From Alcaligenaceae bacterium (GTDB lineage: Bacteria > Pseudomonadota > Gammaproteobacteria > Burkholderiales > Burkholderiaceae_B), in NCBI GenBank assembly GCA_013205565.1, contig JABMMM010000174.1, forward strand, positions 2,290-66,289: a stretch of DNA of 64,000 nucleotides. Direction: 5' to 3'. The position numbers were made by a program, and so were the translations under genes. The stretch's first letter is position 1, and each line of letters begins with the position of its first letter. The notes under the pieces were generated by a model. That model saw only the letters and a list, made by a program, of their open reading frames with translations. It did not search any database and was not told the origin of the DNA. Below are positions 9,224 to 63,024 of this stretch, piece after piece.

Positions 9224-10111
9224 ATGATCACTATTTTTGGTATTCCCTTACAAGCCTTCTTAGGCCAGCTTTTGCTGGGCTTAGTCAACGGCTCTTTTTA
9301 CGCCATTTTGTCGTTGGGCTTAGCGGTGATTTTTGGCTTGCTCAATGTCATTAACTTTGCGCATGGTGCGCTTTACATGTTTGGCGCGTTTCTGGCCTGG
9401 ATGGGTTTAGCCTATTTTGACCTGAATTATTGGGTCATGCTGGCGCTTGCTCCGCTCATCGTTGGCTTTTTTGGCATTTTGATTGAAAAATTTTTGCTCA
9501 AGCATCTTTATAAGCTTGATCATTTATACGGCCTGTTGCTCACCTTCGGCATCACGCTGTTAATGGAAGGTCTTTTTCGCAGCTTTTATGGCGTGTCAGG
9601 TCAACCCTACTCGACGCCCGAGGCACTGCGTAGCGCCACCAATCTTGGCTTCATGGTCTTGCCTAACTACCGTGCCTGGGTGGTGGTGGCCTCAGTCGTG
9701 GTCTGTTTGCTGACCTGGTTTGTGATTGAACGTACACGCTTAGGTGCCGTGCTACGGGCGGGCACTGAAAACCCACGTTTGGTCGAGGCCTTTGGTGTGA
9801 ACGTGCCGCTGATGATCACCCTCACGTACGGCTTTGGAGTCGCACTCGCCGGCTTTGCAGGTGTTCTAGCAGCACCGATCTTGCAGATTTCACCCCTCAT
9901 GGGTTCAAACCTGATCATCGTCGTGTTTGCTGTGGTCGTGATCGGGGGGATGGGGTCGATTTTGGGCGCCATTGTCACGGGCCTTGGTCTGGGACTCATC
10001 GAAGGCTTGACCAAAGTGTTTTGGCCTGAGGCCTCAAGTACGGTCGTGTTCATCATCATGGCGATCGTCTTATTACTGCGCCCGGCAGGTCTGTTTGGAA
10101 AAGAAAAATGA
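9224..10111 (+). CDS. livH: Liv-family permease (LivH-like)
   Basis: LGLAVIFGLLNVINFAHG, VVIGGMGS; hydrophobic. Confidence 0.88.
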   Translation: MITIFGIPLQAFLGQLLLGLVNGSFYAILSLGLAVIFGLLNVINFAHGALYMFGAFLAWMGLAYFDLNYWVMLALAPLIVGFFGILIEKFLLKHLYKLDHLYGLLLTFGITLLMEGLFRSFYGVSGQPYSTPEALRSATNLGFMVLPNYRAWVVVASVVVCLLTWFVIERTRLGAVLRAGTENPRLVEAFGVNVPLMITLTYGFGVALAGFAGVLAAPILQISPLMGSNLIIVVFAVVVIGGMGSILGAIVTGLGLGLIEGLTKVFWPEASSTVVFIIMAIVLLLRPAGLFGKEK

Positions 10112-11097
10112 ATCGTCAAGTGTTTGGATATCTTTTATTTACCATTTTTTTGTTGGCGATTCCGTTGCTGGGCATCTATCCCATCTTCGCCATGAAAATC
10201 ATGTGCTACGCCTTGTTTGCCTGCGCGTTTAATTTATTGCTTGGTTTCACTGGTTTGCTCTCGTTTGGTCATGCCGCCTTTTTGGGCACTGCCGCTTACG
10301 CTTCCGGTCACGCAATGAAGGTCTGGGGCTTTTCGACTGAGCTCGGGATTCTCTACGGCGTTGCGATGGCCGGTGTTTTAGGGCTTGCGATGGGTGCCGT
10401 GGCGATTCGGCGCAGCGGCATCTATTTTGCGATGATCACTCTGGCGCTTTCACAGATGGTTTATTTCTTTTTTCTGCAAGCCAAGTTCACCGGCGGCGAA
10501 GACGGCTTACAAGGCGTGCCGCGAGGAACGCTTTTTGGGCTCATTGATCTCAAAAACGACCTTAACCTTTACTACCTGATCGTTGCCATTTTTATGTTTG
10601 GCTACTTTCTGATTTGGCGAATCGTACATTCGCCTTTTGGTCAGGTCCTTAAAGCGATTCGTGAAAACGAACCGCGGGCGATTTCTCTGGGCTATGACGT
10701 CGAGCGCTTCAAACTACTGGCGTTTGTTTTGTCAGCCATGCTCGCCGGTCTGGCGGGTTCAGCAAAAATGTTGATTTTTGTGTCGGCAACCTTGTCTGAC
10801 GCAACCTGGCAGATGTCGGGCCTAGTGATCTTAATGACTTTGATTGGCGGCTTAGGCACCTTAGTCGGCCCCGTGATTGGCGCTTTTATCATCGTGCTTC
10901 TTGAAAACAAAGTCGGTGATTTTGGGGCGGCTCTTGCAAACGCCACCGGTATAGAATGGTTTACGCGCCTAGGTGAATCAGTCACAATCGTCATCGGTTT
11001 GATTTTTGTCATTTGTGTCTTGTCCTTCAGACGCGGTTTAGTGGGCGAAGCCAACGCCTGGCTTGAAAAGCGTAGGGGCTCGCCAGCGCAGAGCTAA
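10108..11097 (+). CDS. livM: Liv-family permease (LivM-like)
   Basis: GLLSFGHAAF, YFAMITLA, TGGEDG, AIRENE. Confidence 0.88.
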   Translation: MNRQVFGYLLFTIFLLAIPLLGIYPIFAMKIMCYALFACAFNLLLGFTGLLSFGHAAFLGTAAYASGHAMKVWGFSTELGILYGVAMAGVLGLAMGAVAIRRSGIYFAMITLALSQMVYFFFLQAKFTGGEDGLQGVPRGTLFGLIDLKNDLNLYYLIVAIFMFGYFLIWRIVHSPFGQVLKAIRENEPRAISLGYDVERFKLLAFVLSAMLAGLAGSAKMLIFVSATLSDATWQMSGLVILMTLIGGLGTLVGPVIGAFIIVLLENKVGDFGAALANATGIEWFTRLGESVTIVIGLIFVICVLSFRRGLVGEANAWLEKRRGSPAQS

Positions 11098-11166
11098 CTT
11101 CTGCGCTGTTGTTTGAACAGCCTCTGAAACAAAAAAAATATTCAGAGGCTGAAGTTCGGAGACAAG

Positions 11167-12027
11167 ATGACTTTGATCGATATGCACTCGCATTGGGGGA
11201 CGCAGCGCGGTTACGTGCTGCGCACGCCCCAAGAACTTGCTCAGCAAAAGAAAACCTGGAACTCAGAGACGCAGTACGAAACCGAAGCGCAAATGGTCGC
11301 TTACTTTCGGGCGTCTCAAGCACGCGTGATCTTAGACTTGGGTTTTACAAAGTTTGCCCCACTGCACGAAGTCCTTGCTTTGCACGACTATTCTTTCGAG
11401 ATGCAACGTCAACATCCCGAAGCGATCCTTGGCAACTGGTTTCATTTAGACCCAGCCTTGCATGGCATCGACGGCCTAAAAGAGCTGCGCCGTTGCATCG
11501 ACGCGCGGGCAGGCTTTGTCGGTTTGGCGGTGAATGGTTCGGGTTCTGTCCCCGCGAGCGACCCGTTGTACGAGCCCTATTACAAGCTTTGTATTGAAGC
11601 TCAGATACCGGTGTTGATTTTTGTGGGTACCACCGGTCTAGGGGCTGGCCTGCCGGGCGGCAACGGTATTTTGCTTGACAGTTGTCATCCCCGCCATCTT
11701 GATTGGGTTGCCGCCAAAAATCCCTTACTGAAGATCGTTGCGGCACGACCTGGCTGGCCGTGGCAAGCTGAAACCATTGCCGTGTTGATGCACAAGCGCA
11801 ATATTTGGTATGAATTACACGGGTGGTCGCCCAAGTACTTTACGCCCGATCTCAAACACGACATTGCGCGTCGCCTGCAAGACCGCATCATGTTTGGCGG
11901 CGATTACCCTTTATACAAATACGAAAGACTCACCACTGAGTGGAAAGCCGAAGGCTATTCAGAAGCAGTGTTGGATAAAGTATTTTATAAAAATGCTGAA
12001 GCCTTTTTAGCCGGAGAACAACGCTAA
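11167..12027 (+). CDS. Amidohydrolase_2 family metallohydrolase
   Basis: IDMHSH N-terminal metal motif, GWSPKYF, IMFGGDYP. Confidence 0.8.
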   Translation: MTLIDMHSHWGTQRGYVLRTPQELAQQKKTWNSETQYETEAQMVAYFRASQARVILDLGFTKFAPLHEVLALHDYSFEMQRQHPEAILGNWFHLDPALHGIDGLKELRRCIDARAGFVGLAVNGSGSVPASDPLYEPYYKLCIEAQIPVLIFVGTTGLGAGLPGGNGILLDSCHPRHLDWVAAKNPLLKIVAARPGWPWQAETIAVLMHKRNIWYELHGWSPKYFTPDLKHDIARRLQDRIMFGGDYPLYKYERLTTEWKAEGYSEAVLDKVFYKNAEAFLAGEQR

Positions 12028-12806
12028 TGGATTTAGGACTCAAGGGTAAAGTCGCGATCGTAGGCGGCGCGAGTATGGGGATTGGTTTGGGCATCGCCAA
12101 CCAGCTGGCGCACGAAGGCGCGGATCTGGTGATCTTCGCGCGCCGACTGCCCAAGCTCGAGCAAGCAGCGGCAGAGATCGTGCGCAAGTACGACGTTCGG
12201 GTGTTGCCGGTGGCTGCTGATATTCGCGACAAGGACGATAGCGTGCGCATCGTGCAAGCCGCCATCGATGCGTTTGGCAGACTAGACATCTTAGTCAACA
12301 ACGATGGCGCGCCGCCACTCGGCGCGATCGACTCTTTTGACGACGTCGCCTGGCAAAAAGCGATTGAACAAAACCTGTTTAGCGTAATTCGGATGGTGCG
12401 CTCGGCCCTGCCTCACTTAACAGCAGCGGGCGGGGGCAGTATTTTAAATATCTCTGCGATTTCTGCGATTCAGCCCATCGCAGGTTTTGCACTTTCGGTT
12501 GCCACGTGGGCAGGCGTAATCGGCTATGCAAAGACCTTATCAATAGAAATCGCACGACACGGAATCAACGTCAACACCATCTGCCCTGGCTACATCGATA
12601 CCGATCGTCTACAAAAAGTTTTTGCGTCTGGCACTGAAAGCCCCGAGGCCGTACGCGCGAAGCTCATCACAGAGATTCCGCTGGGTCGCATCGGTTCAAC
12701 GGCCGATATTGCGAACCTCGTGGCTTTGTTGGTTTCGCCTGCGGGCTCATACATTACCGGCTGCACGATTCCGGTCGATGGCGGTCTGTTACGCGCGCTA
12801 CGCTAA
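12027..12806 (+). CDS. Short-chain dehydrogenase/reductase (3-oxoacyl reductase-like)
   Basis: GASMGIG, DILVNN, INVNTICPG, ITGCTIPVDGG. Confidence 0.88.
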   Translation: MDLGLKGKVAIVGGASMGIGLGIANQLAHEGADLVIFARRLPKLEQAAAEIVRKYDVRVLPVAADIRDKDDSVRIVQAAIDAFGRLDILVNNDGAPPLGAIDSFDDVAWQKAIEQNLFSVIRMVRSALPHLTAAGGGSILNISAISAIQPIAGFALSVATWAGVIGYAKTLSIEIARHGINVNTICPGYIDTDRLQKVFASGTESPEAVRAKLITEIPLGRIGSTADIANLVALLVSPAGSYITGCTIPVDGGLLRALR

Positions 12807-20465: not shown

Positions 20466-20499
20466 TTGTCATGACCCTGTCACATGAAAGGATGAATAT
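20466..20499 (+). promoter_or_regulatory. Pho-box promoter of the GT28 gene
   Basis: TTGTCAT-GACC-CTGTCAC (20466-20483, near consensus), 10 nt, GAATAT. Confidence 0.75.
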
Positions 20500-20507
20500 A
20501 CCTTTCA

Positions 20508-21659
20508 ATGGATAAAACTATTGACTTCATTTACTTCAATGCGGGCGGCGGTCATCGCGCGACGGCGCTGGCGCTGCAGCAGGCCATTGAATTTGAGCGG
20601 CGCCCCTGGAACGTGCGCTTGGTGAATCTGTTTGAAGTGTTAGACCCGAAGGCGAGCTTTAACAAAGTGATGCGCTGCGCGCCAGAAGACCTGTACAACT
20701 TTAGATTGCGCCATGGCCTCACACTCGGGCTCTCGACAGAGCTCAAACTGTTTCAGGCGATGATTAAAATGGGGCATAACGCCATGGTTCGCAAGCTTGA
20801 GCAGCACTGGCTGGATACTAAGCCCGATCATGTCGTTTCATTAGTACCAAATTTCAACAAAGCGTTATACGAAAGCGTGACAAACGCCTTGCCGATGGCA
20901 CCCTTTGTCACGGTCTTAACCGACATGGCGGATTATCCGCCGCATTTTTGGATCGAACCCAATCAGGCACAGCACCTCGTTTGTGGCACCGCGCACGCCG
21001 CAGAACAAGCGCGCGCTGCGGGTTATCGAGATGAGCAGATTTCGCTGACGTCGGGGATGATCTTACGGCCTGCCTTCTACGATCAGCCTGAGCTTGATCG
21101 TGAGACAGAGTGTCTCGAGCTCGGACTAGACCCCGACAAGCCAACAGGGATTGTGATGTTTGGTGGCCATGGCTCGAGCGATATGCTTCGCATCGCGAAG
21201 GCGTTACCTGACATTCAACTCATTTTTATTTGCGGCATGAATGCGACGCTGAGCAAAAAAATCTCTTTACTCAAACCAAGCTGCAGACATGTCGTGATCG
21301 GCTTCACACAGAAAATCAATCACTACATGCGCTTAGGCGATTTTTTTATTGGTAAGCCCGGGCCGAGCAGCTTAAGTGAGGCCGTCCATATGGGCTTACC
21401 CGTTATCACGTTTGGCAACGCCTGGACGATGCCCCAAGAGCGTTACAACACCAACTGGGTGCGCGAGCAAGGCGTAGGCCTTGTGATCCCCTCTTTGCGC
21501 GCCATTCGAAAGGGCGTGTTAGCGCTCTTGGAGAACCTTCCCGCATATAAAGACACCGTCTCAACCATCGAAAATCGAGCGGTGTTTGAAGTGACCGATA
21601 TTCTTGCGCAATTGATGTCGGCCGCAGATACAGAACGAGCAACAGTCGAATTGCCCTAA
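20508..21659 (+). CDS. GT28 diacylglycerol glycosyltransferase (MGDG synthase/UgtP-like)
   Basis: NAGGGH, TVLTD, GKPGPSSLSEA, PQERYN motifs. Confidence 0.85.
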   Translation: MDKTIDFIYFNAGGGHRATALALQQAIEFERRPWNVRLVNLFEVLDPKASFNKVMRCAPEDLYNFRLRHGLTLGLSTELKLFQAMIKMGHNAMVRKLEQHWLDTKPDHVVSLVPNFNKALYESVTNALPMAPFVTVLTDMADYPPHFWIEPNQAQHLVCGTAHAAEQARAAGYRDEQISLTSGMILRPAFYDQPELDRETECLELGLDPDKPTGIVMFGGHGSSDMLRIAKALPDIQLIFICGMNATLSKKISLLKPSCRHVVIGFTQKINHYMRLGDFFIGKPGPSSLSEAVHMGLPVITFGNAWTMPQERYNTNWVREQGVGLVIPSLRAIRKGVLALLENLPAYKDTVSTIENRAVFEVTDILAQLMSAADTERATVELP

Positions 21660-22471
21660 GCTGGTACGATCAGATCCTCTTGTTCGTCGAGCGTCTCGCT
21701 GGTTCGATACGGCCAGTGTACAACTTTCAAAACGCCCTCTGACGTCTCAACAATCGCAGAAAGGCTCTCGACCCAGTCACCATCGTTACAGTACAAAATA
21801 CCATCGATATCGCGAATCTCGGCTTTATGGATATGACCACACAAAACACCATCGTAGCCGCGACGCCTTGCCTCGTCAGTGACAATATTCTCGAATTGAG
21901 TAATAAACGAGACTGCGTTTTTAACCTTGTGCTTGAGGTACTGTGACAATGACCAATACGACAAACCCATTTTGTGCCGAAAGTGATTGAACCAGTTGTT
22001 CAGCTTGAGTATTAGCGTGTACATACTGTCGCCTAAATAGGCAAGCCACTTTGCATGCTGGATGATTCCATCAAACAAATCGCCGTGAGTGACCCAAATC
22101 CGTCGACCGTCTAAAAGTTGGTGAGTCGTTTCGTCAACAATCTTTATGTCACCAAACGCCATTCCCAAGAACTGCCTGATGACCTCGTCGTGATTGCCGG
22201 CAATATAGGTCACGTGCGTACCCTTGCGCGCTTTGCGAAGGATCTTCTGAATCACATCGTTATGACTTTGGCGCCAGTACCAACCCTTCTTGAGTTGCCA
22301 ACCATCGATAATGTCGCCCACCAGATACAAATGATCAGAGTCATTCCATTTTAAAAAATCTAATAGGTATTCGGCTTTGCAACCCGGCGTACCAAGGTGA
22401 ATGTCCGAAATCCATATCGCCCGATGACGCTGTGGCCGTTGCTCTGGAACATCATATTCAGCTGGTTTCAT
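21656..22471 (-). CDS. plcP: PlcP-type intracellular phospholipase C (LpxH-like metallophosphoesterase)
   Basis: ISDIHLG, VGDIIDGW, HNDVIQKILRKARKG, GNHD, HGD, CGHIH, NDGDWVES, matching recalled PlcP/SMc00171-type sequences; Pho boxes upstream. Confidence 0.8.
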   Translation of the reverse strand: MKPAEYDVPEQRPQRHRAIWISDIHLGTPGCKAEYLLDFLKWNDSDHLYLVGDIIDGWQLKKGWYWRQSHNDVIQKILRKARKGTHVTYIAGNHDEVIRQFLGMAFGDIKIVDETTHQLLDGRRIWVTHGDLFDGIIQHAKWLAYLGDSMYTLILKLNNWFNHFRHKMGLSYWSLSQYLKHKVKNAVSFITQFENIVTDEARRRGYDGVLCGHIHKAEIRDIDGILYCNDGDWVESLSAIVETSEGVLKVVHWPYRTSETLDEQEDLIVPA

Positions 22472-38006: not shown

Positions 38007-39257
38007 TTAGCTCAGCGCCTCAGGTAAAACTGTTGTCTTAGCCTTCGAGGTTGCCAGAACTGCACTGGGATCCTCATTCGCGATCAATGATCTAAAAATG
38101 CCCTCGGTACGCGTGATCACCGAACTCCAATCGCGATCCACCGCAGTTTGACGCGCTGCGACTTGTATTTGAGTGCGTAAGGCGGGGTCTTCAACGACTT
38201 GTCGGGCGGCCTCGAAAAGCTGCTCTTCTTGATTAGGCGCAAGGACCATGCCGTTGCGCTTATGTTCGATTAACTGCCCCGCTGCGGCATGGTTGTAAGC
38301 CACTACCGCCAAGCCACTTGCCATCGCCTCAATCGTGACGTTACCAAAGGTCTCTGTCAGACTCGGAAAGATAAACAAATCTGCGCTAGCGTAGTGCTTC
38401 GCCAGATCCTGGCCAGTACGCGTACCCGCAAAGATCGCTTCAGGGATACTGCGTTCGAGGGCGTGACGCAGTGGGCCGTCTCCGACGATGACTAGTTTTA
38501 CTGGTAGCCCCTGCGCTTGCAAGGATTTAAAACAGCGAACAACAATATCCAGATTTTTTTCAACCGCTAGACGGCCAACGGAGAGCAGCACTTGTGTGTC
38601 TGCTGTCGCGCCCCAGCTCTGACGCAGGGACTCGTCTCGTTTTGCGGGCGAAAAGTTTTCTGTGTCCACACCACGCGGTACAACCATCAAGCGATCAAAA
38701 CCAATCTTTGAAAGCTCGGCCATCAAGCCTTGGGTCGGCACCATTGTGCAGTGCGTCGCATTATGGAATTTGCGCATATAGGCCACAATTGCGCCCTTTA
38801 GCCAGCCAAAGCCATAGAACTGACTGTAAGCATGAAAGTTTGTTCTGAAATCTGAACTCGTTGGTATTTTGAGCTTACGCGCTGCCCGCGAAGCAGACCA
38901 ACCTAAGGGACCCTCTGTCGCGATATGCACAAGATCAGGTCGCTGCTTGAGCCATAATTTTTGCAACGCGCCTTGCGCTGGTAACCCCATACGCAGTTGT
39001 TTGTACATTGGAATCGGCGCGCCACGCACCAATACCTCTTGGTAGCGCGAATCAACCGCTGCCTCGTGATCACTATGATTCCTAGGCCTGACCAGCATGA
39101 GTTCATGCCCACGCGCACGCAAGCCCTCTACGATCTTTGAAACAGTGTGTGCGACCCCATTAATATCTGGCGGATAGGTTTCTGTCACCAACGCTATTCT
39201 AAGACTAGGTTTGTCAGGGTAGATGCGATCGACTTGAATGGGGGCGTATTCGGTCAT
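38007..39257 (-). CDS. GT4 glycosyltransferase (Agt-like diacylglycerol glycosyltransferase candidate)
   Basis: VTETYPPDINGV, HIATEGPLG, SVGRLAVEKN, FPSLTETFG..EAMASG; start moved to ATG at 39257 because the promoter overlaps the track's TTG. Confidence 0.85.
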   Translation of the reverse strand: MTEYAPIQVDRIYPDKPSLRIALVTETYPPDINGVAHTVSKIVEGLRARGHELMLVRPRNHSDHEAAVDSRYQEVLVRGAPIPMYKQLRMGLPAQGALQKLWLKQRPDLVHIATEGPLGWSASRAARKLKIPTSSDFRTNFHAYSQFYGFGWLKGAIVAYMRKFHNATHCTMVPTQGLMAELSKIGFDRLMVVPRGVDTENFSPAKRDESLRQSWGATADTQVLLSVGRLAVEKNLDIVVRCFKSLQAQGLPVKLVIVGDGPLRHALERSIPEAIFAGTRTGQDLAKHYASADLFIFPSLTETFGNVTIEAMASGLAVVAYNHAAAGQLIEHKRNGMVLAPNQEEQLFEAARQVVEDPALRTQIQVAARQTAVDRDWSSVITRTEGIFRSLIANEDPSAVLATSKAKTTVLPEALS

Positions 39258-39297
39258 CTGAGCTCTTTCATACCAAGCAGTTTCTAGTATGTTTATC

Positions 39298-39331
39298 ACT
39301 GTACTCAAATTATGTAACCGTTCGATGACAG
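39298..39331 (-). promoter_or_regulatory. Pho-box promoter of the GT4 gene
   Basis: CTGTCAT-CGAA-CGGTTAC (39331-39314), 10 nt, TACAGT. Confidence 0.75.
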
Positions 39332-39349: not shown

Positions 39350-39378
39350 CTGCAACACGATTGTCATCAAAAATTCAT
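39350..39378 (+). promoter_or_regulatory. Possible Pho box upstream of the Mpo1-like gene
   Basis: CTGCAAC-ACGA-TTGTCAT-CAAA-AATTCAT; no -10 at the 10-nt spacing. Confidence 0.5.
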
Positions 39379-39467: not shown

Positions 39468-40076
39468 ATGAAAGAATTGCTCAACACCTTAAAAATACAG
39501 CGCTGGGATGATCACCGCTATTATCACCACAGTCGCATTAACCAAAGTTTGCACTTAGTCAGCGCGCTTTCGTTTTTAGTATCTTATGTGCTCCTGTTCA
39601 TTAATCCAGTCGCAGCATCGCTTGTTGCTTGGCTAGTTGCCATGACAACACGTCAATCAGGCCACTTCTTTTTTGAACCCAAGGGCTACGATCACGTCAA
39701 CCAAGCGACACACGAGCATAAAGAAGAAATCAAGGTTGGCTATAACTTACATCGTAAGATTGTGTTGCTGTCGATCTGGGCGGCGATCCCTGTGTTGGCC
39801 TACCTTCAGCCCTCTCTGATCACCTGGGCGGTCCCTGAGGCCTATGAAGATACCACCGTGCGCATCGTGGGCATGGCTTGGCTCTTTTTGGGCGTTGCTG
39901 GTTTGTTGTTTAGGGTCACTCAACTGTGTGTCAAAGAGAGCTTCAAAGCGGCGTTTGCCTGGGCTATAAAAATCTTAACTGACCCTGTGCATGATGTCAT
40001 GCTGTACCGTCGCTCACCGCTTTATTTAATGCGTGGTGAGTTGATTGATCCCATGCCACATATTCAGTCGCATTAA
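39468..40076 (+). CDS. Mpo1/DUF962-like membrane protein
   Basis: YYHHSRINQSLH and RQSGHFFFE resemble the Y..H...N...H and Q..GH..FE histidine motifs of DUF962/Mpo1; hydrophobic segments. Confidence 0.6.
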   Translation: MKELLNTLKIQRWDDHRYYHHSRINQSLHLVSALSFLVSYVLLFINPVAASLVAWLVAMTTRQSGHFFFEPKGYDHVNQATHEHKEEIKVGYNLHRKIVLLSIWAAIPVLAYLQPSLITWAVPEAYEDTTVRIVGMAWLFLGVAGLLFRVTQLCVKESFKAAFAWAIKILTDPVHDVMLYRRSPLYLMRGELIDPMPHIQSH

Positions 40077-40088
40077 GTCGGATCCAAA

Positions 40089-40162
40089 CAGAGACTTCAA
40101 CTCGGACACCCGACGCTAGAAGTCTCTGATTGCCCTCATCATCGTGCTAGAAGTCTCTGATT
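40089..40162. repeat. One inverted plus two direct copies of a GAAGTCTCTG core between convergent genes
   Basis: CAGAGACTTC at 40089-40098; GCTAGAAGTCTCTGATT at 40115-40131 and 40146-40162 (31-bp period); can form a hairpin. Confidence 0.75.
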
Positions 40163-40181
40163 ACCACCAACCAGCAGACCT

Positions 40182-41846
40182 TCACAGCTTAGTTTGCTGC
40201 ACCATCTCTAACAACATACGGCGTCGAATTTGTTTGTTTGTCTGCCCTTGCGGCGTCCACCACCAAGCGCCCGCAGCCATCTGATGCGCAGCACGTACAA
40301 AACGTTGGCAGAAATCATCAAAATCTGCATCTGTAAAGTTCAGACTAAAGATCAGTCTGCCGGTACCGACCCAACTCAGGGCAATCCCCTCGCGACGCAG
40401 GTAAAACTGCAACAGCCAGTTAAAGCGGCTTGGCACGTCATACAGCACGGTCCACACGGTCGACATGGCCTCGACACGCAGTGGCAGCCCTTCGCGCTTG
40501 AGCAGGTCGTTCAGCCGAGTCTTGCGCATGTCCCAGGTTGTTTCAAGCTCTGCATAAAGCTTTTGAACTGCAGGGGTGTCTTGGCGATGCAAGAACACAT
40601 TCATAGCACCCATGACATAGGGGTGAGCATTGAAGGTGCCTCGGGCAAAGCAGATATCGGCCGGGTGCTCGGCATAGAAACGCGTCATCAGCTTTTTCTT
40701 ACCGCACAGAATACCAATCGGCAAACCACCGCCCAGTGTCTTGCCATACGTGACCATGTCAGCATCGATACCGAAATACTCTTGGGCGCCACCTGGGGCA
40801 AGCCTGAAGCCCAAAAAGACTTCATCCAAAATAAAGATGATGCCTCGCTCGGCACACACCTGACGCAGCTCTTTGAGCCACGCGGTATACGCTTCGCGGT
40901 CGTAATTCGCCCGACGCCCGCCATCGACCAGTGTCGAGTCGGTTGGAGCCGCTTGGTTGGGGTGCATGGCTTGTATCGGGTTGACCAACACGCAAGCAAT
41001 GTCGCGACGATTGCGCAGCACCCGCAGCGTGTTCTCATGCATTTCACGCAGCGTCAGCGTGTGCTTAGACGGTGGCATCGGGTTACCAGGCCCTGGCTGT
41101 ACATCATCCCACCAGCCATGGTACGCGCTGGTAAAGCGAACAATTTTTTGGCGTCCAGTTTGATAGCGTGCCAAGCGCACGGCTTGCATCACCGCCTCGG
41201 TGCCAGACATATGAAACGAGACCTCATCCTTGCCCGAAATCGCGCACAGGCGTCGAACATTGTCGAGTACGCAAGGATGGTACGAACCCAAGACCGGGCC
41301 CAGATCGCGCACCATCTTGCTGCCCTCTTCGATACAAGACTTGTAAAAATCCAAGCCAAACAAGTTCACGCCGTACGAGCCCGTCACATCGATCAAGCGG
41401 TTGCCATCCATATCGGTCAGCCAGACGCCATCACTGCTCGTCCAGAAGCTACCCATTTGAATGTGCTGTTGCAAGACTTCGCGAAACTGATAGGGCACCC
41501 GATAGTTGCTGATGAACTGCAAGTCAGAAATCATCGGTTTGCTAGCGGCTGTATGCGCCAGGGTCAACGCGCTGCGCGACCGCAGATCATTGCCCAGCGA
41601 GGCAAGCGCCTGACGCCGTTGCAGTACGACCTCTTGCGGCGCGCTATCTGCGTCAAACCATTTGTCATCAGAGTACGAGTAGCCAGGCAACCAACGGGTA
41701 ATGCGCTTAGCCCAACGCAGGTGTCCCCCCAAAGACGGGTATTTCGCCACCGACAATTGCAGACGTTGCTTGATGCGCAACAACAGCCAAAGACCCACAG
41801 CAGTTGCAGCAGCGTATTGCATAACACTCAAAATTTGATCAGTCAT
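40182..41846 (-). CDS. Class III PLP aminotransferase (GSA-aminomutase-like) with N-terminal membrane anchor
   Basis: DVTGSYG, SGTEA, AYHGW, LDEVFLGFR, YGKTLGGGLP; 554 aa, hydrophobic N-terminus. Confidence 0.85.
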   Translation of the reverse strand: MTDQILSVMQYAAATAVGLWLLLRIKQRLQLSVAKYPSLGGHLRWAKRITRWLPGYSYSDDKWFDADSAPQEVVLQRRQALASLGNDLRSRSALTLAHTAASKPMISDLQFISNYRVPYQFREVLQQHIQMGSFWTSSDGVWLTDMDGNRLIDVTGSYGVNLFGLDFYKSCIEEGSKMVRDLGPVLGSYHPCVLDNVRRLCAISGKDEVSFHMSGTEAVMQAVRLARYQTGRQKIVRFTSAYHGWWDDVQPGPGNPMPPSKHTLTLREMHENTLRVLRNRRDIACVLVNPIQAMHPNQAAPTDSTLVDGGRRANYDREAYTAWLKELRQVCAERGIIFILDEVFLGFRLAPGGAQEYFGIDADMVTYGKTLGGGLPIGILCGKKKLMTRFYAEHPADICFARGTFNAHPYVMGAMNVFLHRQDTPAVQKLYAELETTWDMRKTRLNDLLKREGLPLRVEAMSTVWTVLYDVPSRFNWLLQFYLRREGIALSWVGTGRLIFSLNFTDADFDDFCQRFVRAAHQMAAGAWWWTPQGQTNKQIRRRMLLEMVQQTKL

Positions 41847-41890
41847 AGTTTTGCCTCGAAAACTCCTTTTTATGACTTTAAAGTGACGAA

Positions 41891-42814
41891 ATGATGAACA
41901 TCAGTAAAGCCGTACGTAATGTCTTTGCCAATGAAGACCTCAATTTTTTGGTGACTAACCGAATTCCTAGGCTTGCTGTCACGCATTTCATGGGTTGGTT
42001 CAGCAAAATCAAGGTGGGCTGGGTACGAGACGCCTCGATCGGCACCTGGAAACTATTTACTGATCTTGATTTAAGCGAAGCTAAAAAACAACGTTTTGAA
42101 AGTCTTCACGATTGCTTTGTTCGGGAACTGCGTGAAGGTGCTCGGGTCATCGATCACCACCCAGAGGTGATGACGAGTCCTTGTGACGCCATCGTAGGCG
42201 CCTGTGGCAAGATCATTAATGGGCAAGTGTTTCAGGCGAAGGGGTTTCCTTATACCCTCACTGACCTCTTTGGCGCTCAAACCGACACTAGTGCTTGGGC
42301 CAACGGCCAGTACATCACCTTACGTTTAACCTCTGCGATGTACCACCGCTTTCATGCCCCTTATACCGGTGCGATGACAGCCGTACATTATCTTGCAGGC
42401 GATACCTGGAACGTAAACCCGATTGCCTTAAAGCGTGTCGAGAAACTATTTTGTAAAAATGAACGCGCAGTACTTTCGCTCGAACTAGGCGCACAAAAGC
42501 ACAAGGTGGCGCTGGTTCCCGTCGCTGCGATCTTGGTGGCCAGCATCCGCTTACACGGCTTGAATACGCTATTTCATACACGCTACAGAGGACAGACTGA
42601 TTTTGCTTGCAACGTAGCCTTTGAAAAAGGGCAAGAGCTTGGCTGGTTTGAGCACGGCTCGACCATTATTGTGTTCGCCCCAGAAGGGTTTTCCTTAGCT
42701 GACCAAATCTTGCCCGGTGCGCAGATCAAAATGGGGAGCCCGCTGATGCAGTTGCCACCCGAGCAGCAGGCGATGAGAACGACAAACCACGCTGCCCAAG
42801 CGAGCGCGCCGTGA
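41891..42814 (+). CDS. psd: Phosphatidylserine decarboxylase-family proenzyme
   Basis: DCFVRELR, SPCDA, YHRFHAP, NER, HGST self-cleavage site. Confidence 0.85.
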   Translation: MMNISKAVRNVFANEDLNFLVTNRIPRLAVTHFMGWFSKIKVGWVRDASIGTWKLFTDLDLSEAKKQRFESLHDCFVRELREGARVIDHHPEVMTSPCDAIVGACGKIINGQVFQAKGFPYTLTDLFGAQTDTSAWANGQYITLRLTSAMYHRFHAPYTGAMTAVHYLAGDTWNVNPIALKRVEKLFCKNERAVLSLELGAQKHKVALVPVAAILVASIRLHGLNTLFHTRYRGQTDFACNVAFEKGQELGWFEHGSTIIVFAPEGFSLADQILPGAQIKMGSPLMQLPPEQQAMRTTNHAAQASAP

Positions 42815-44112
42815 GTCGTGGCTTCTATGTCGTCATCCTCGCGCAAACCTTTTCCTCGCTAGCGGATAACGCACTGTTCATTGCTGCGATCGCACTGATT
42901 CATCAATTAGAAGGACCGGTGTGGGTACCCCCTCTGATCAAATGGGGCGTTGCCGCCAGCTATGTATTGCTGGCACCATTCGTTGGCGCAATCGCCGACG
43001 CTTATCCGAAAGGCAAGGTGATGTTCACCACAAATGCCTTCAAAGTCATAGGATGCATCTTGATGTTTAGCTACGGCTTTTTTGGCTTGACGGCATCTGA
43101 GCAAATCATCTTAATCTGCGCGGCCTATGCAGTTGTCGGTACAGGTGCCGCCGCGTATTCGCCCGCCAAGTACGGCATCATCACTGAAATGTTGCCCCCC
43201 GAGAAACTGGTCGTCGGCAACAGCTGGATCGAAGGCATGACGGTCGTTTCTATCATTATGGGATCCGTTGTGGGCGGTTTGCTGGTATCGCCCGCAGTAT
43301 CAGGTTGGTTACTGTCACACGACACTCTCAAGAAAATGGCCAATACACCTGCTGAAGTTGCGATCTTGATGATTGGTCTGTTGTACATCGCCGCCGCGCT
43401 GACCAATTTATTGATTCCAAAAACAAACGCCCAGTACCCGAAGCAGCATCAGCACCCCATTCGCCTCATCAGAGCCTTTGCTGTTTACACCAAGGTGCTG
43501 TGGACCGATAAGCTAGGTCAGATTTCACTAGGGGTCACAACCCTCTTTTGGGGGGCGGGCGCAACACTGCAACTGATTGTGATCGAATGGGGTCGCAGTC
43601 AACTAGGCTATCGCTTAGATCAAGCCTCAATCTTGATGGGCATCGCCGCCTTAGGTACCGTGCTGGGTTCGATTGCAGCGGCTCGCGTGCCGCTCAAGCA
43701 ATCGCTTCGTGTCCTGCCGGTTGGGGCACTCATGGGGTTAGTCGTGCTCGTCATGCCGCTCATTTACAACGAGTGGGCCGTGTATGGGCTGTTGCTGGTC
43801 ATAGGGATTTTGTCTGGCTTTTTTGTCGTGCCCATGAACGCTCTGCTGCAGCATCGTGGCCATCTTTTGCTGTCAGCGGGCCATTCAATTGCTGTGCAAA
43901 ACTTCAATGAACAACTCAATATTTTATTGATGGTCTCGCTTTACAGCTTAATGTTGTGGCTAGGGATTTCAATCAACACCATCATCGTGATGTTTGGACT
44001 CTCGGTTGCGATCTTAATGCTTGTGTTGATCCGGTGGCATCAGACAAACCTTCGTAAGGATCCGAACCTACTCTCGCGTATTGGTGAACACGGCCAGGGT
44101 CAGGCGCTTTAG
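42811..44112 (+). CDS. lplT: Lysophospholipid transporter LplT (MFS), copy 1
   Basis: SSLADNALF, YSPAKYG, VPMNALLQHRG, SIAVQNFNE. Confidence 0.88.
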   Translation: MSRGFYVVILAQTFSSLADNALFIAAIALIHQLEGPVWVPPLIKWGVAASYVLLAPFVGAIADAYPKGKVMFTTNAFKVIGCILMFSYGFFGLTASEQIILICAAYAVVGTGAAAYSPAKYGIITEMLPPEKLVVGNSWIEGMTVVSIIMGSVVGGLLVSPAVSGWLLSHDTLKKMANTPAEVAILMIGLLYIAAALTNLLIPKTNAQYPKQHQHPIRLIRAFAVYTKVLWTDKLGQISLGVTTLFWGAGATLQLIVIEWGRSQLGYRLDQASILMGIAALGTVLGSIAAARVPLKQSLRVLPVGALMGLVVLVMPLIYNEWAVYGLLLVIGILSGFFVVPMNALLQHRGHLLLSAGHSIAVQNFNEQLNILLMVSLYSLMLWLGISINTIIVMFGLSVAILMLVLIRWHQTNLRKDPNLLSRIGEHGQGQAL

Positions 44113-44172: not shown

Positions 44173-45039
44173 CTAATCAAACCGGTAGGTTACACCCACC
44201 TGCACACGGCTGACATACTCGCCAGAACCGCCCCAAGCCGTTCCAATTGAACTGGCGTTGCGCTGGTAAGACAACCCAAAGCTCAGATCCTTGGTGGGCG
44301 AATACATCAAGGCGACAAGCCCATAGCGCGTCATTGATGGATCAGACTCACTCGGATTGGTGGTGATCCCGCCATCAAGCGCGATTTTCCATTCGGGTGA
44401 GATGTTCCAGACCGGTGCGAGCGAAACCGAATAAAGGTTGGTGCGATTTGCATCTTCGCTGAAGCCGACGGTGTACGCCTTGTTATACGGTGCGCGCAAA
44501 TAGCCTGCGTTGAAATGCAACTCGTAGTTCTCACTAAATTGCGAAGCAACTAAGGTTAACCCGTAGTTCCAGGCTGCGTTACCGATGCCATATACTTGTT
44601 GCGAAGTACTTGAGGGCGCAATCAATTGAGGCCGCAGCGTCAGGTTCAAACCCGTCTCACCGTCGCCCATAAAGCGCCACTTCAAGTTCAAGGTGTAATT
44701 TCCAACGCGCGAAAAAGAGCCCAGTGGCTGCAAATAATAGGTAGACGTGAACTGCAGGTCAATGTTGTCAGTCAAGCCGCCTGAAAACGCGAACGGAAAC
44801 GCTTTCGCGTTACCAGAACCCTCATAGTCTTGCCCTGAGCTCACACTGCCCGAGTCAGTCGAATTCTGCCCAACCTGCAACACCCTGTAAAAATATTGCT
44901 CGACCTGGTAGCCACCCTTGGCTGTGGTGCCAGCATCCTCGGTATTTAAGGGCATGTAGGCGTAAGCGGGAAGACACGCCAGAAACAGAGTCAGAGCAAA
45001 ATATCTATCGCTGGCCAAACCACTTTTTTTTGTAAGCAT
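44173..45039 (-). CDS. Putative outer-membrane beta-barrel ('transporter' family)
   Basis: Signal peptide, PLNTEDAGT start motif, alternating aromatic strands, C-terminal VGVTYRFD. Confidence 0.65.
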   Translation of the reverse strand: MLTKKSGLASDRYFALTLFLACLPAYAYMPLNTEDAGTTAKGGYQVEQYFYRVLQVGQNSTDSGSVSSGQDYEGSGNAKAFPFAFSGGLTDNIDLQFTSTYYLQPLGSFSRVGNYTLNLKWRFMGDGETGLNLTLRPQLIAPSSTSQQVYGIGNAAWNYGLTLVASQFSENYELHFNAGYLRAPYNKAYTVGFSEDANRTNLYSVSLAPVWNISPEWKIALDGGITTNPSESDPSMTRYGLVALMYSPTKDLSFGLSYQRNASSIGTAWGGSGEYVSRVQVGVTYRFD

Positions 45040-61689: not shown

Positions 61690-63024
61690 TTGAACAGAGG
61701 CTTTTATACGGTCATGGCGGCGCAGGCGCTATCTTCGCTTGCTGACAATGCGCTTTTTATCGCCGCAATCGCGCTGATTCAACAGCTTCAGGGGCCCGAC
61801 TGGATGGCGCCCATGATGAAGTGGTGGTTCGCAGCCTCTTACGTCTTGCTCGCCGCGTTTGTCGGGGCGATTTCGGACTCGTACCCAAAAGGCCGAGTCA
61901 TGTTTGTGACCAACGCCATCAAGGTCAGTGGCTGCGTGCTGATGTTTTGTTACGCCTTTTTGGGCTTGTCGGCGGGTGCGCAGGTCAACCTGGTGTGCGT
62001 GGCCTACGCGGTGGTCGGAATTGGCGCAGCCGCCTACTCGCCCGCCAAATACGGAATCGTCACTGAAATGCTGCCCCCCCTAGAGCTTGTTAAGGGCAAC
62101 AGCTGGATCGAGGGCCTGACAATCTTATCCATTATTTTGGGTACGCTGGTAGGGGGCGTGCTAGTTTCGCCAGGTGTATCGGCCTGGTTACTCTCGCATC
62201 CTTGGCTGCATAGCGTCGTGTCGACCCCCGCCGAGGCCGCTATTTTGGTCATCGGCCTGGTATACGCTGCAGCTGCGATTTGCACGCTGATGATTCCAAA
62301 AACCAATATCCAATATCCCAAACAGCAAAAGAATCCGCTTGCTCTTATGACTGCTTTTTGGGGCTATGTTCGCATTCTCTGGAAAGATAAACTCGGGCAA
62401 ATTTCGTTGGCAGTCACCACCTTATTTTGGGGTGCGGGTGCCACACTGCAATTATTGGTCATTGAATGGGGCCGCAGCCATCTGGGCTACCGGCTCGATC
62501 AGGCCTCGATCTTAATGGGGGTGACTGCCATTGGCACCATTTTTGGGGCCATGCTCGCTAGCCGAGTCACCCTGCCGCGCGCGTTAACGGTGCTGCCCTT
62601 AGGCGTGGGGATGGGATTTATCGTGCTCTTAATGCCCTTGGTGCAGTCGTCTTGGACGATCCATATTTTAGGGGTTGATTTGCCGTGGGCTGCCTATATT
62701 TTGCTGATCTTAATTGGCTTAACGTCGGGCTACTTTGTGGTGCCCATGAACGCGTTGCTACAGCACCGCGGCCATGTTTTACTTTCTGCAGGGCATTCAA
62801 TCGCAGTTCAAAACTTCAATGAACAGCTCAACATCTTGCTGATGGTGGCGATCTATACGCTACTGCTTTGGCTGAATTTTTCGATTAGCTTCATCATCGC
62901 AATCTTCGGAATGCTGGTGGCAAGCCTGATGCTGGTGCTAATGCGTTGGAATCAGCTCAACCTCAAACGCAACCCTGGCCTGTTAGACGAAATCGGTCAG
63001 GAAGGACACGGCAAAGCGCTTTGA
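61690..63024 (+). CDS. lplT: Lysophospholipid transporter LplT (MFS), copy 2
   Basis: SSLADNALF, YSPAKYG, VPMNALLQHRG. Confidence 0.9.
   Translation: MNRGFYTVMAAQALSSLADNALFIAAIALIQQLQGPDWMAPMMKWWFAASYVLLAAFVGAISDSYPKGRVMFVTNAIKVSGCVLMFCYAFLGLSAGAQVNLVCVAYAVVGIGAAAYSPAKYGIVTEMLPPLELVKGNSWIEGLTILSIILGTLVGGVLVSPGVSAWLLSHPWLHSVVSTPAEAAILVIGLVYAAAAICTLMIPKTNIQYPKQQKNPLALMTAFWGYVRILWKDKLGQISLAVTTLFWGAGATLQLLVIEWGRSHLGYRLDQASILMGVTAIGTIFGAMLASRVTLPRALTVLPLGVGMGFIVLLMPLVQSSWTIHILGVDLPWAAYILLILIGLTSGYFVVPMNALLQHRGHVLLSAGHSIAVQNFNEQLNILLMVAIYTLLLWLNFSISFIIAIFGMLVASLMLVLMRWNQLNLKRNPGLLDEIGQEGHGKAL

Follow-up and report, generated by a model that had tools for sequence, protein, structure and literature searches.

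Which lipid, if any, is formed by a bacterial gene cluster that combines a relative of the yeast 2-hydroxy fatty acid dioxygenase Mpo1, a membrane-anchored aminotransferase and a paralogue of phosphatidylserine decarboxylase (PSD)? This question is raised by positions 39468-44112 of a 64,000-nucleotide stretch of Alcaligenaceae bacterium DNA, hereafter the window, which is contig C149:2290-66289 (GenBank JABMMM010000174.1) of a metagenome-assembled genome of 3.4 Mb and 96% completeness. Freshwater Burkholderiales with the labels Alcaligenaceae, Burkholderiaceae or Zwartia are closest to it. An initial annotation had placed four genes in this interval, and all four are present: an Mpo1-like/DUF962-like polytopic membrane protein of 202 aa (39468-40076, plus strand), a class-III pyridoxal phosphate (PLP) aminotransferase of 554 aa (40182-41846, minus strand), a PSD-family pyruvoyl decarboxylase paralogue of 307 aa, here Psd (41891-42814, plus strand), and a paralogue of the lysophospholipid flippase LplT (42811-44112, plus strand), which overlaps psd by 4 bp. 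The annotation is corrected in the strand of the aminotransferase gene, which lies opposite to the other three. Upstream of the Mpo1-like gene lies the gene of an Agt-like lipid glycosyltransferase of family 4 (GT4; 38007-39308, minus strand; Pfam Glycos_transf_1 and Glyco_transf_4), whose real start is probably an ATG near 39257. The local order is GT4 <> Mpo1-like >< PLP <> Psd-LplT (<>, divergent; ><, convergent), so that the four genes of the interval form three transcription units and a single operon is ruled out by the strands. We consider it an even call that these genes constitute a phosphate (Pho)-controlled accessory branch of the PlcP-Agt type of membrane renovation, in which a lipid head group would be oxidised, transaminated and decarboxylated to an amine.

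The functional linkage of these genes, which had been claimed from their adjacency and lipid-directed families, is supported by their conserved order and by gene fusions. Relatives of the PLP enzyme were collected by a scan of one genome per species, which gave 375, and the gene order was read in the best 80 loci of these 375 relatives (63-97% identity). Hardly any of these 80 loci, which include the genera Limnohabitans, Rhodoferax and Zwartia, deviate from the order Psd <> PLP >< Mpo1-like <> GT4, and with the identity limit lowered to 50% this order is found in about 100 loci, also in other Pseudomonadota orders and in Sphingomonas. Among 20 regions from different Burkholderiales families the trio of Psd, PLP and Mpo1-like genes is complete in 20, GT4 lies alongside in 18 and a gene for the metallophosphoesterase PlcP in nine. 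The divergent Psd/PLP pair with a spacer of 44-100 bp is kept across orders and classes. A census of the neighbours within 6 kb on either side was done in 114 loci, which were not dereplicated and many of whose contigs end early; it revealed Psd in 93, the Mpo1-like gene in 89, GT4 in 82, a PlcP-like gene in 49, an LplT or other major facilitator superfamily (MFS) transporter in 46, an OlsB-like GNAT acyltransferase in 25, the UDP-glucose dehydrogenase Ugd in 20 and PhoX and PPK2 in 14 each. The conserved core consists of GT4, the Mpo1-like protein, the PLP enzyme and Psd. Of the four-gene module originally proposed, the Mpo1-like, PLP and Psd members stand, GT4 has to be added and the dedicated LplT is not part of the core.

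The trio is also kept in other orders, in which the arrangement differs. In small-genome lineages it forms one operon of PLP, a 938-aa protein ending in a GT4 domain, Psd, the Mpo1-like gene and a Ugd-family dehydrogenase, as in the small-genome pseudomonadotal locus L121. The GT4 fusion protein of L121 is encoded at 9475-12291 (plus strand) between the PLP and Psd genes and carries about 550 N-terminal residues without Pfam match ahead of its GT4 domain. In Sphingomonas parapaucimobilis (NZ_CP155753.1) the arrangement Psd <> PLP >< Mpo1-like is preceded by a UbiE-type S-adenosylmethionine (SAM)-dependent methyltransferase gene at 72974-73627, and six further regions outside the Burkholderiales encode the same methyltransferase (61-68% identity, about 207 aa) immediately ahead of their Mpo1-like gene. 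These seven methyltransferase-bearing loci outside this order belong to the set L118-L124 and L128; the genome of the window lacks this UbiE-type methyltransferase of the Sphingomonas-type loci.

A search of 1.8 billion representative proteins for fusions identified three PLP enzymes with a C-terminal Mpo1-like domain (P0129, P0157 and P0180), the C-terminal parts of which align to the whole window protein with 25-31% identity. P0129 (locus L085) follows GT4 in one operon, beside phosphonate transport genes and phnGH. P0180 is encoded in L083, a 12.6-kb contig (Logan SRR32818062) of a distant organism, together with a PSD, two FAD_binding_4 oxidases (one of them ALO/DprE1-like), GT4, a glycerol-3-phosphate dehydrogenase, a HAD phosphatase and a protein with fatty-acyl-AMP ligase, acyl carrier protein (ACP) and acyltransferase parts. 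Apart from the opposite GT4 gene, L083 is one operon, in which a canonical-type PSD gene lies between those of the ALO/DprE1-like and the second FAD oxidase and the dehydrogenase is GpsA-like; its gene content suggests a self-contained cluster for lipid biosynthesis. The fusions and the conserved linkage show a joint action of the PLP enzyme and its Mpo1-like partner.

Control by phosphate had been proposed from Pho-like boxes before the Mpo1-like gene and, weaker, at 41872-41889, and both boxes were found. The first, at 39351-39369 (plus strand, TTGTCATCAAAAATTCATC), was read from the sequence and has a putative regulatory role; a direct repeat facing GT4 lies close to it at 39314-39331 (minus strand, CTGTCATCGAACGGTTAC, 11/14 matches). 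The weak repeat before the PLP gene (41872-41889, minus strand, TCGTCACTTTAAAGTCAT, 9/14) is located in the 44-bp divergent spacer between Psd and PLP. The window contains eight Pho-box matches versus 4.6 expected, a count that is not above chance, so that a single box is not significant here and cross-locus enrichment alone was counted as evidence. Across orthologous loci, the Mpo1-like/GT4 spacer holds a match of at least 11/14 in 53 of 72 loci (74%) versus 5.7% of random controls. For the Psd/PLP spacer a match of at least 10/14 was found in 50 of 93 loci (54%) versus 9.4% of controls, a softer result as some matches overlap start codons. The enrichment at both divergent promoters suggests that the module is under PhoB-type phosphate-starvation control. 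The module lies in a larger Pho island containing C-P lyase genes, PhnZ, PlcP together with a glycosyltransferase of family 28 (GT28), PehA, a HAD phosphatase, a Ugp-like ABC system and an SpdA-like phosphodiesterase.

The elements of PlcP-Agt renovation are found together in the window: the PlcP-like metallophosphoesterase (21656-22471, minus strand; Metallophos matches), which would supply diacylglycerol, GT4 at 38007-39308 and boxes at 20466 and 39314. The best NCBIfam matches of GT4 are lipid glycosyltransferases, namely GlcNAc-PG synthase (151 bits) and monoglucosyl-diacylglycerol synthase (119 bits). Within 20508-22471 the PlcP-like gene converges with a gene similar to those of GT28 monoglycosyldiacylglycerol (MGDG) synthases, and the latter gene has a good Pho box with two mismatches at 20466-20483; the island thus holds two different lipid glycosyltransferases, GT4 and GT28.

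Against PF06127 the Mpo1-like protein reaches 21.3 bits, slightly short of the cut-off (24), with an alignment over profile positions 11-66 of 95. Nevertheless, 25 of 26 orthologues match the profile at E<=0.01 (best E 4.9e-10) and the fused domain of P0180 reaches 38.6 bits. The profile checks proposed by the initial annotation were clear for PF00202 (PLP enzyme, 123 bits) and PF02666 (Psd, 183 bits), whereas for PF06127 the window protein itself fell short and its orthologues gave matches. Fifteen residues are invariant in the orthologues (D15, H20, N25, Q26, H29, R62, Q63, G65, H66, E70, K97, W165, K168, D172 and P173). Among them, the motifs DDH..H...NQ..H (N-terminal) and RQ.GH...E flank a transmembrane (TM) hairpin and are predicted on the cytoplasmic side, and a further motif, W..K...DP, is C-terminal. 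The N-terminal His/Asn/His motif, the hairpin and a GH..FE motif are shared with yeast Mpo1; in contrast to the latter, the window protein has the sub-cut-off score, an additional conserved C-terminal half (W165, K168, D172-P173) and a link or fusion to an aminotransferase. The AlphaFold2 model is a helical membrane protein (pLDDT 92), for which a search with the model gave no fold match in the PDB at E<=0.001, and a sequence search of solved structures was likewise empty.

The PLP enzyme had been described as longer than a glutamate-1-semialdehyde (GSA) aminomutase with a hydrophobic N-terminus. This was borne out: about 115 extra residues precede the fold, with a hydrophobic helix at residues ~9-24 followed by basic residues, from which the catalytic domain is predicted to be cytoplasmic by the positive-inside rule. 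It is not HemL, as had been argued: it reaches 162-164 bits against TIGR00713 (cut-off 527), while the genuine hemL, on contig C131, scores 597 bits, and the TM helix and the extra residues are further differences. The closest solved relative is the aminotransferase (AMT) domain of the mycosubtilin synthase MycA (6kfm, E 3e-48, residues 117-508), followed by GSA aminomutases (1e-34) and then by aminoglycoside C-6' aminotransferases, D-phenylglycine aminotransferase and beta-transaminases. The Schiff-base lysine K369 (YGKTLGGG) aligns with the MycA lysine and the pyridine-nitrogen aspartate D341 lies in ILDEV, both being invariant in 104 sequences. MycA AMT, the aminoglycoside C-6' aminotransferases and the beta-transaminases aminate carbonyls on bulky non-alpha substrates. 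It was shown that the MycA AMT aminates beta-ketoacyl chains (PMC3870968). The window enzyme resembles the AMT of mycosubtilin/iturin synthases in fold, PLP lysine and a presumably lipidic substrate, but the latter sits in an assembly line and acts on ACP-bound chains, whereas the window enzyme is free-standing and TM-anchored. No ACP, ketosynthase or nonribosomal peptide/polyketide synthase gene was found in the window or in the Burkholderiales loci, so that the assembly-line context of AMT is missing. Three relatives of 726-1189 aa (P0132, P0133 and P0134) have large N-terminal polytopic or borderline GT2-like domains (22.9 bits, a weak match) fused to the same aminotransferase and are of eukaryote-like, possibly algal, composition.

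Psd matches PF02666 (cut-off 22) and TIGR00163 (152 bits, cut-off 112). It is of the long type, its alignment to E. coli PSD running from the N-terminal membrane-binding helices onward, and it keeps D99, H152, H155 and G256-S257-T258 (E. coli D90, H144, H147 and S254), which are conserved across 94 family members. In E. coli PSD, the side chains of Tyr137 and Ser166 form hydrogen bonds to the lipid phosphate (PMC7952604). Both contacts are replaced invariantly in the paralogues, by Arg145 and Asn174, and nearby positions are altered as well (LSP(K/R)D to LTSAM; LFS to TWN), while the canonical long PSDs of the same genomes retain the E. coli Tyr/Ser pattern. In a phylogenetic tree 21 Psd paralogues form one clade (support 95/91) far from the canonical enzymes. 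Following the suggestion to look for a housekeeping psd, a psd-pssA pair was located on contig C198, so that the Psd of the cluster is a second copy. At least two PSD genes are present in 25 of 25 genomes with an orthologue of the PLP enzyme, compared to a single PSD gene in 14 of 15 genomes without it. A housekeeping role of the cluster Psd was rejected, since this gene is the extra copy in all 25 genomes and is not linked to pssA; from its sequence and distribution it appears to be a specialised copy. PSD-family enzymes which evolved other substrates than phosphatidylserine (PS) are known, such as PsiD and a fungal arginine decarboxylase (PMC11929908, PMC12904898).

How do these components compare to described pathways? 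To our knowledge, the known phospholipid substitutes (glycolipids, ornithine lipids, betaine lipids and sulfolipids) are not made with these enzymes. The mismatch to the olsBA/olsF, btaAB, sqd and spt pathways, stated in the initial annotation, holds: no described phosphorus-free lipid pathway fits. PlcP-Agt renovation under phosphate stress is known from Sinorhizobium, Agrobacterium, SAR11, P. aeruginosa, Methylosinus and B. cenocepacia (PMC8528852, PMC9239053, PMC13691135). It shares with the module the Pho control, the PlcP-type phosphoesterase and GT4, which in many loci lie beside the module, but as described it has no aminotransferase, Mpo1-like protein or PSD paralogue, and its products MGDG and glucuronosyldiacylglycerol (GADG) are nitrogen-free. 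The Ugd neighbours point to glucuronosyl lipids. A sequence from uronic acid or sugar over a carbonyl to an amine is also found in ArnA/ArnB, which form L-Ara4N on lipid A, and in NeoQ/NeoN and GenQ/GenB of aminoglycoside C-6' formation, and the relatives detected for the PLP enzyme include the C-6' aminotransferases; however, these systems act on soluble nucleotide sugars or pseudo-oligosaccharides with NAD or FAD oxidases, and lack a membrane anchor, an Mpo1-like partner and a pyruvoyl decarboxylase. BtaA/BtaB form the betaine lipid DGTS, a phosphorus-free, nitrogen-containing substitute of phosphatidylethanolamine (PE) and phosphatidylcholine (PC), from diacylglycerol under Pho control, and a methyltransferase accompanies the module in some lineages; in contrast, the module has no BtaA-like SAM:diacylglycerol 3-amino-3-carboxypropyl transferase and its enzyme families are entirely different. 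With the canonical route from PS to PE by PSD and on to PC by PmtA, the module shares the PSD family, catalytic triad, GST self-cleavage motif and membrane-binding N-terminus, and in Alphaproteobacteria-like loci the UbiE-type methyltransferase, but the separate clade, the constant presence as extra copy, the missing pssA link and the two exchanged phosphate contacts set Psd apart. No description of the trio was found in the searchable literature on Mpo1/DUF962, Pho-controlled lipids, PlcP lipidomics, keto-GADG or the PhoB regulon, and the genes go unmentioned in papers on Pho-controlled lipids and on a Burkholderia proteome.

What is observed is the linkage and fusion of the genes, the paralogy, the exchanged residues and the enriched Pho boxes; from these we infer the chemical steps, their order and the substrate as follows. 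PlcP would release diacylglycerol, from which GT4 would make a glucosyl or glucuronosyl lipid. The predicted active sites of all three trio enzymes face the cytoplasmic leaflet. The His/Glu-rich Mpo1-like membrane protein would oxidise a hydroxyl or 2-hydroxy-acid function to a carbonyl, the membrane-anchored AMT-type aminotransferase would turn the carbonyl into an amine or alpha-amino acid, and the specialised Psd would strip the carboxyl group by pyruvoyl chemistry. No other order gives each of the three chemistries a sensible place. An amine-headed lipid able to stand in for PE would result; the methyltransferase of other lineages, which would N-methylate the amine there, suggests that an amine is the product, and the altered phosphate contacts of Psd together with the links to GT4 and Ugd suggest a non-phosphate linker. 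From this gene content the product would probably be a phosphorus-free amino-lipid. In the lineage of the window the duplicated LplT would flip lyso-forms. Phosphate-starved B. cenocepacia was reported to form a lipid, tentatively keto-GADG, which depends on PlcP and Agt and has a mass 2 Da below that of GADG, and Agt alone fails to make keto-GADG in E. coli (PMC13691135), which makes an on-lipid oxidation step by another enzyme plausible. We regard it as possible, at somewhat below even prospects, that the trio is a widespread and so far undescribed on-membrane route which builds an amino head group on a phosphorus-free lipid, from hydroxy(acid) over oxo and amino(acid) to amine, that this is N-methylated in Alphaproteobacteria-type loci to give glycolipid mimics of PE and PC, and that the trio supplies the keto-GADG enzyme.

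Several points weigh against an oxidation-transamination-decarboxylation branch, the main weakness being chemical. A pyruvoyl decarboxylase needs an alpha-amino acid, and oxidation and transamination of pyranosyl glucuronate give no obvious alpha-amino acid. Direct amination of pyranosyl glucuronate followed by PSD-type decarboxylation was rejected as chemically unsatisfactory, since it would not place the amine alpha to the carboxylate; the head group acted on may be glycerate-like, furanosyl, acyl-derived or even that of a phospholipid. The known activity of Mpo1 is the Fe2+- and O2-dependent oxidative decarboxylation of free 2-hydroxy fatty acids only and not alcohol oxidation, and the homology is limited to the above-mentioned part of PF06127. 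Arg145 of Psd could still bind phosphate. GT4 is not found nearby in L104, L105, L120, L123, L124 and L128, nor Psd in L085, and the PSD of the distant L083 cluster groups with the canonical PSDs outside the paralogue clade, for which reason L083 was not accepted as a clean orthologue of the whole module.

Rather unlikely, in our judgement, is that the genes serve the catabolic stripping of phospholipids. Here Psd would form PE from PS, or from lyso-PS brought in by LplT, the ethanolamine amine would be removed by the PLP enzyme, either by omega-transamination to the aldehyde or by a phospho-lyase-type elimination, and the Mpo1-like oxygenase would dispose of the aldehyde or keto product; diacylglycerol or phosphatidate would be fed to GT4, and phosphorus and nitrogen would be recovered without or alongside PlcP. 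The retained PSD catalytic residues and membrane-binding helices would suit such a role, as would the translational coupling of LplT to Psd in the window, the LplT-like MFS gene co-operonic with PlcP in L041 and an island given entirely to phosphorus scavenging. Class-III PLP enzymes moreover include omega-transaminases and ethanolamine-phosphate phospho-lyase, but the window enzyme is nearest to the carbonyl-aminating AMT and aminosugar enzymes and not to AGXT2-type lyases. Stripping also leaves the exchange of both phosphate-contact residues unaccounted for, the methyltransferase fits biosynthesis better than degradation, the operon of GT4 and the PLP::Mpo1-like fusion without Psd in L085 is hard to explain, and PE is already made by the housekeeping Psd.

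Unlikely, too, and held with less confidence, is a route on the acyl chain, in which a 2-hydroxy/2-oxo fatty acid or a related acid would receive a 2-amino group by transamination and then lose its carboxyl group, leaving a long-chain amine or amino alcohol, which by N-acylation (OlsB-like), glycosylation (GT4) or methylation would give a sphingoid-like or alkylamine-type phosphorus-free lipid. Points in its favour are that Mpo1 has been characterised with one substrate only, a free 2-hydroxy fatty acid (PMC10398889), and that the nearest solved aminotransferase works on fatty beta-ketoacyl chains (PMC3870968). The OlsB-like N-acyltransferases beside the module in 25 of the 114 loci would fit N-acylation but may merely be co-regulated ornithine-lipid genes, and the fatty-acyl-AMP ligase/ACP/acyltransferase protein of L083 stands against the window and most loci, in which no ACP, ketosynthase or acyl-activating gene is present. 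The tight linkage to PlcP, Agt and Ugd points to diacylglycerol glycolipids. Finally, it is improbable that Psd is a phosphate-stress isoenzyme for PS-to-PE conversion with the PLP and Mpo1-like genes linked by shared Pho control only, as could be thought from the intact PSD catalytic residues and the tendency of Pho islands to collect unrelated genes, since the divergent Psd/PLP pairing is kept across orders and classes, the second PSD gene accompanies the PLP orthologue in 25/25 genomes versus 1/15 without it, the Psd clade is distinct with altered substrate-contact residues and L121 carries all genes in one operon.

Orthologues of the module were found in 31 of 301 genomes (21 of 143 genera) sampled in the order Burkholderiales and in 28 of 401 genomes (14 of 212 genera) sampled in the phylum Pseudomonadota, i.e., in ~10% and ~7% of the sampled genomes, respectively. 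Its carriers are many freshwater, soil and marine bacteria, including the abundant freshwater Limnohabitans, Rhodoferax and Zwartia. With such an occurrence, the lipid class behind it could be a common one that has gone unseen. Replacement of phospholipids is a major route of bacterial survival under phosphorus scarcity in lakes, soils and oceans, and it alters the susceptibility to antibiotics and phages. If the proposed branch is correct, it would assign a function to an Mpo1/DUF962-like protein in bacteria for the first time, extend the PSD-type pyruvoyl enzymes to a new class of substrates and show that the AMT aminotransferase also exists as a free-standing membrane enzyme. Cultured carriers, in which this is open to direct tests, are Zwartia hollandica LF4-65, Zwartia panacis KCTC 42751 and Sphingomonas parapaucimobilis.

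LplT itself is well assigned (NF008397 equivalog, 537 bits, cut-off 297). A second copy, 67% identical, is encoded at 61690-63024 (plus strand) among the housekeeping genes for SMC, LigA and UDG, both copies of the genome thus lying in the window; from this identity and location the cluster copy is a recent lineage-specific duplicate. Neither copy is adjoined by an aas-like gene as in the lplT-aas pair of E. coli, and the cluster copy is coupled to psd instead. LplT on the psd strand is limited to close relatives of the window and missing elsewhere, and for this variability and the 67% paralogue it was rejected as core member. In Comamonadaceae an MFS transporter of 38-41% identity takes its place on the opposite strand beside PlcP. 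In L041 (2956-5081), one of these Comamonadaceae-type loci, the genes of the PlcP-like phosphoesterase and the LplT-like MFS overlap as an operon beside the module, which suggests that lysolipid flipping is tied to PlcP-driven recycling in such loci.

Between the convergent Mpo1-like and PLP genes, an inverted repeat at 40085-40165 with 14-nt arms, the second of which is duplicated 31 bp further on (two 20-nt copies, 95% identical), may act as a bidirectional terminator. A plus-strand open reading frame at 40230-41894 has exactly the length of the antisense PLP gene (554 aa), which poses a risk of wrong strand assignment; it was rejected as a shadow frame since it has no family match and PF00202 is found in the minus-strand frame. 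Downstream of LplT, 44173-45039 (minus strand) encodes a 288-aa protein without Pfam or NCBIfam match, whose N-terminus resembles a signal peptide and whose alternating C-terminus, beta-barrel-like in its pattern, ends in YRFD. Its gene is the final one of the operon with the Ugp-like and SpdA-like genes and lies beside LplT in close relatives, too (65-83%).

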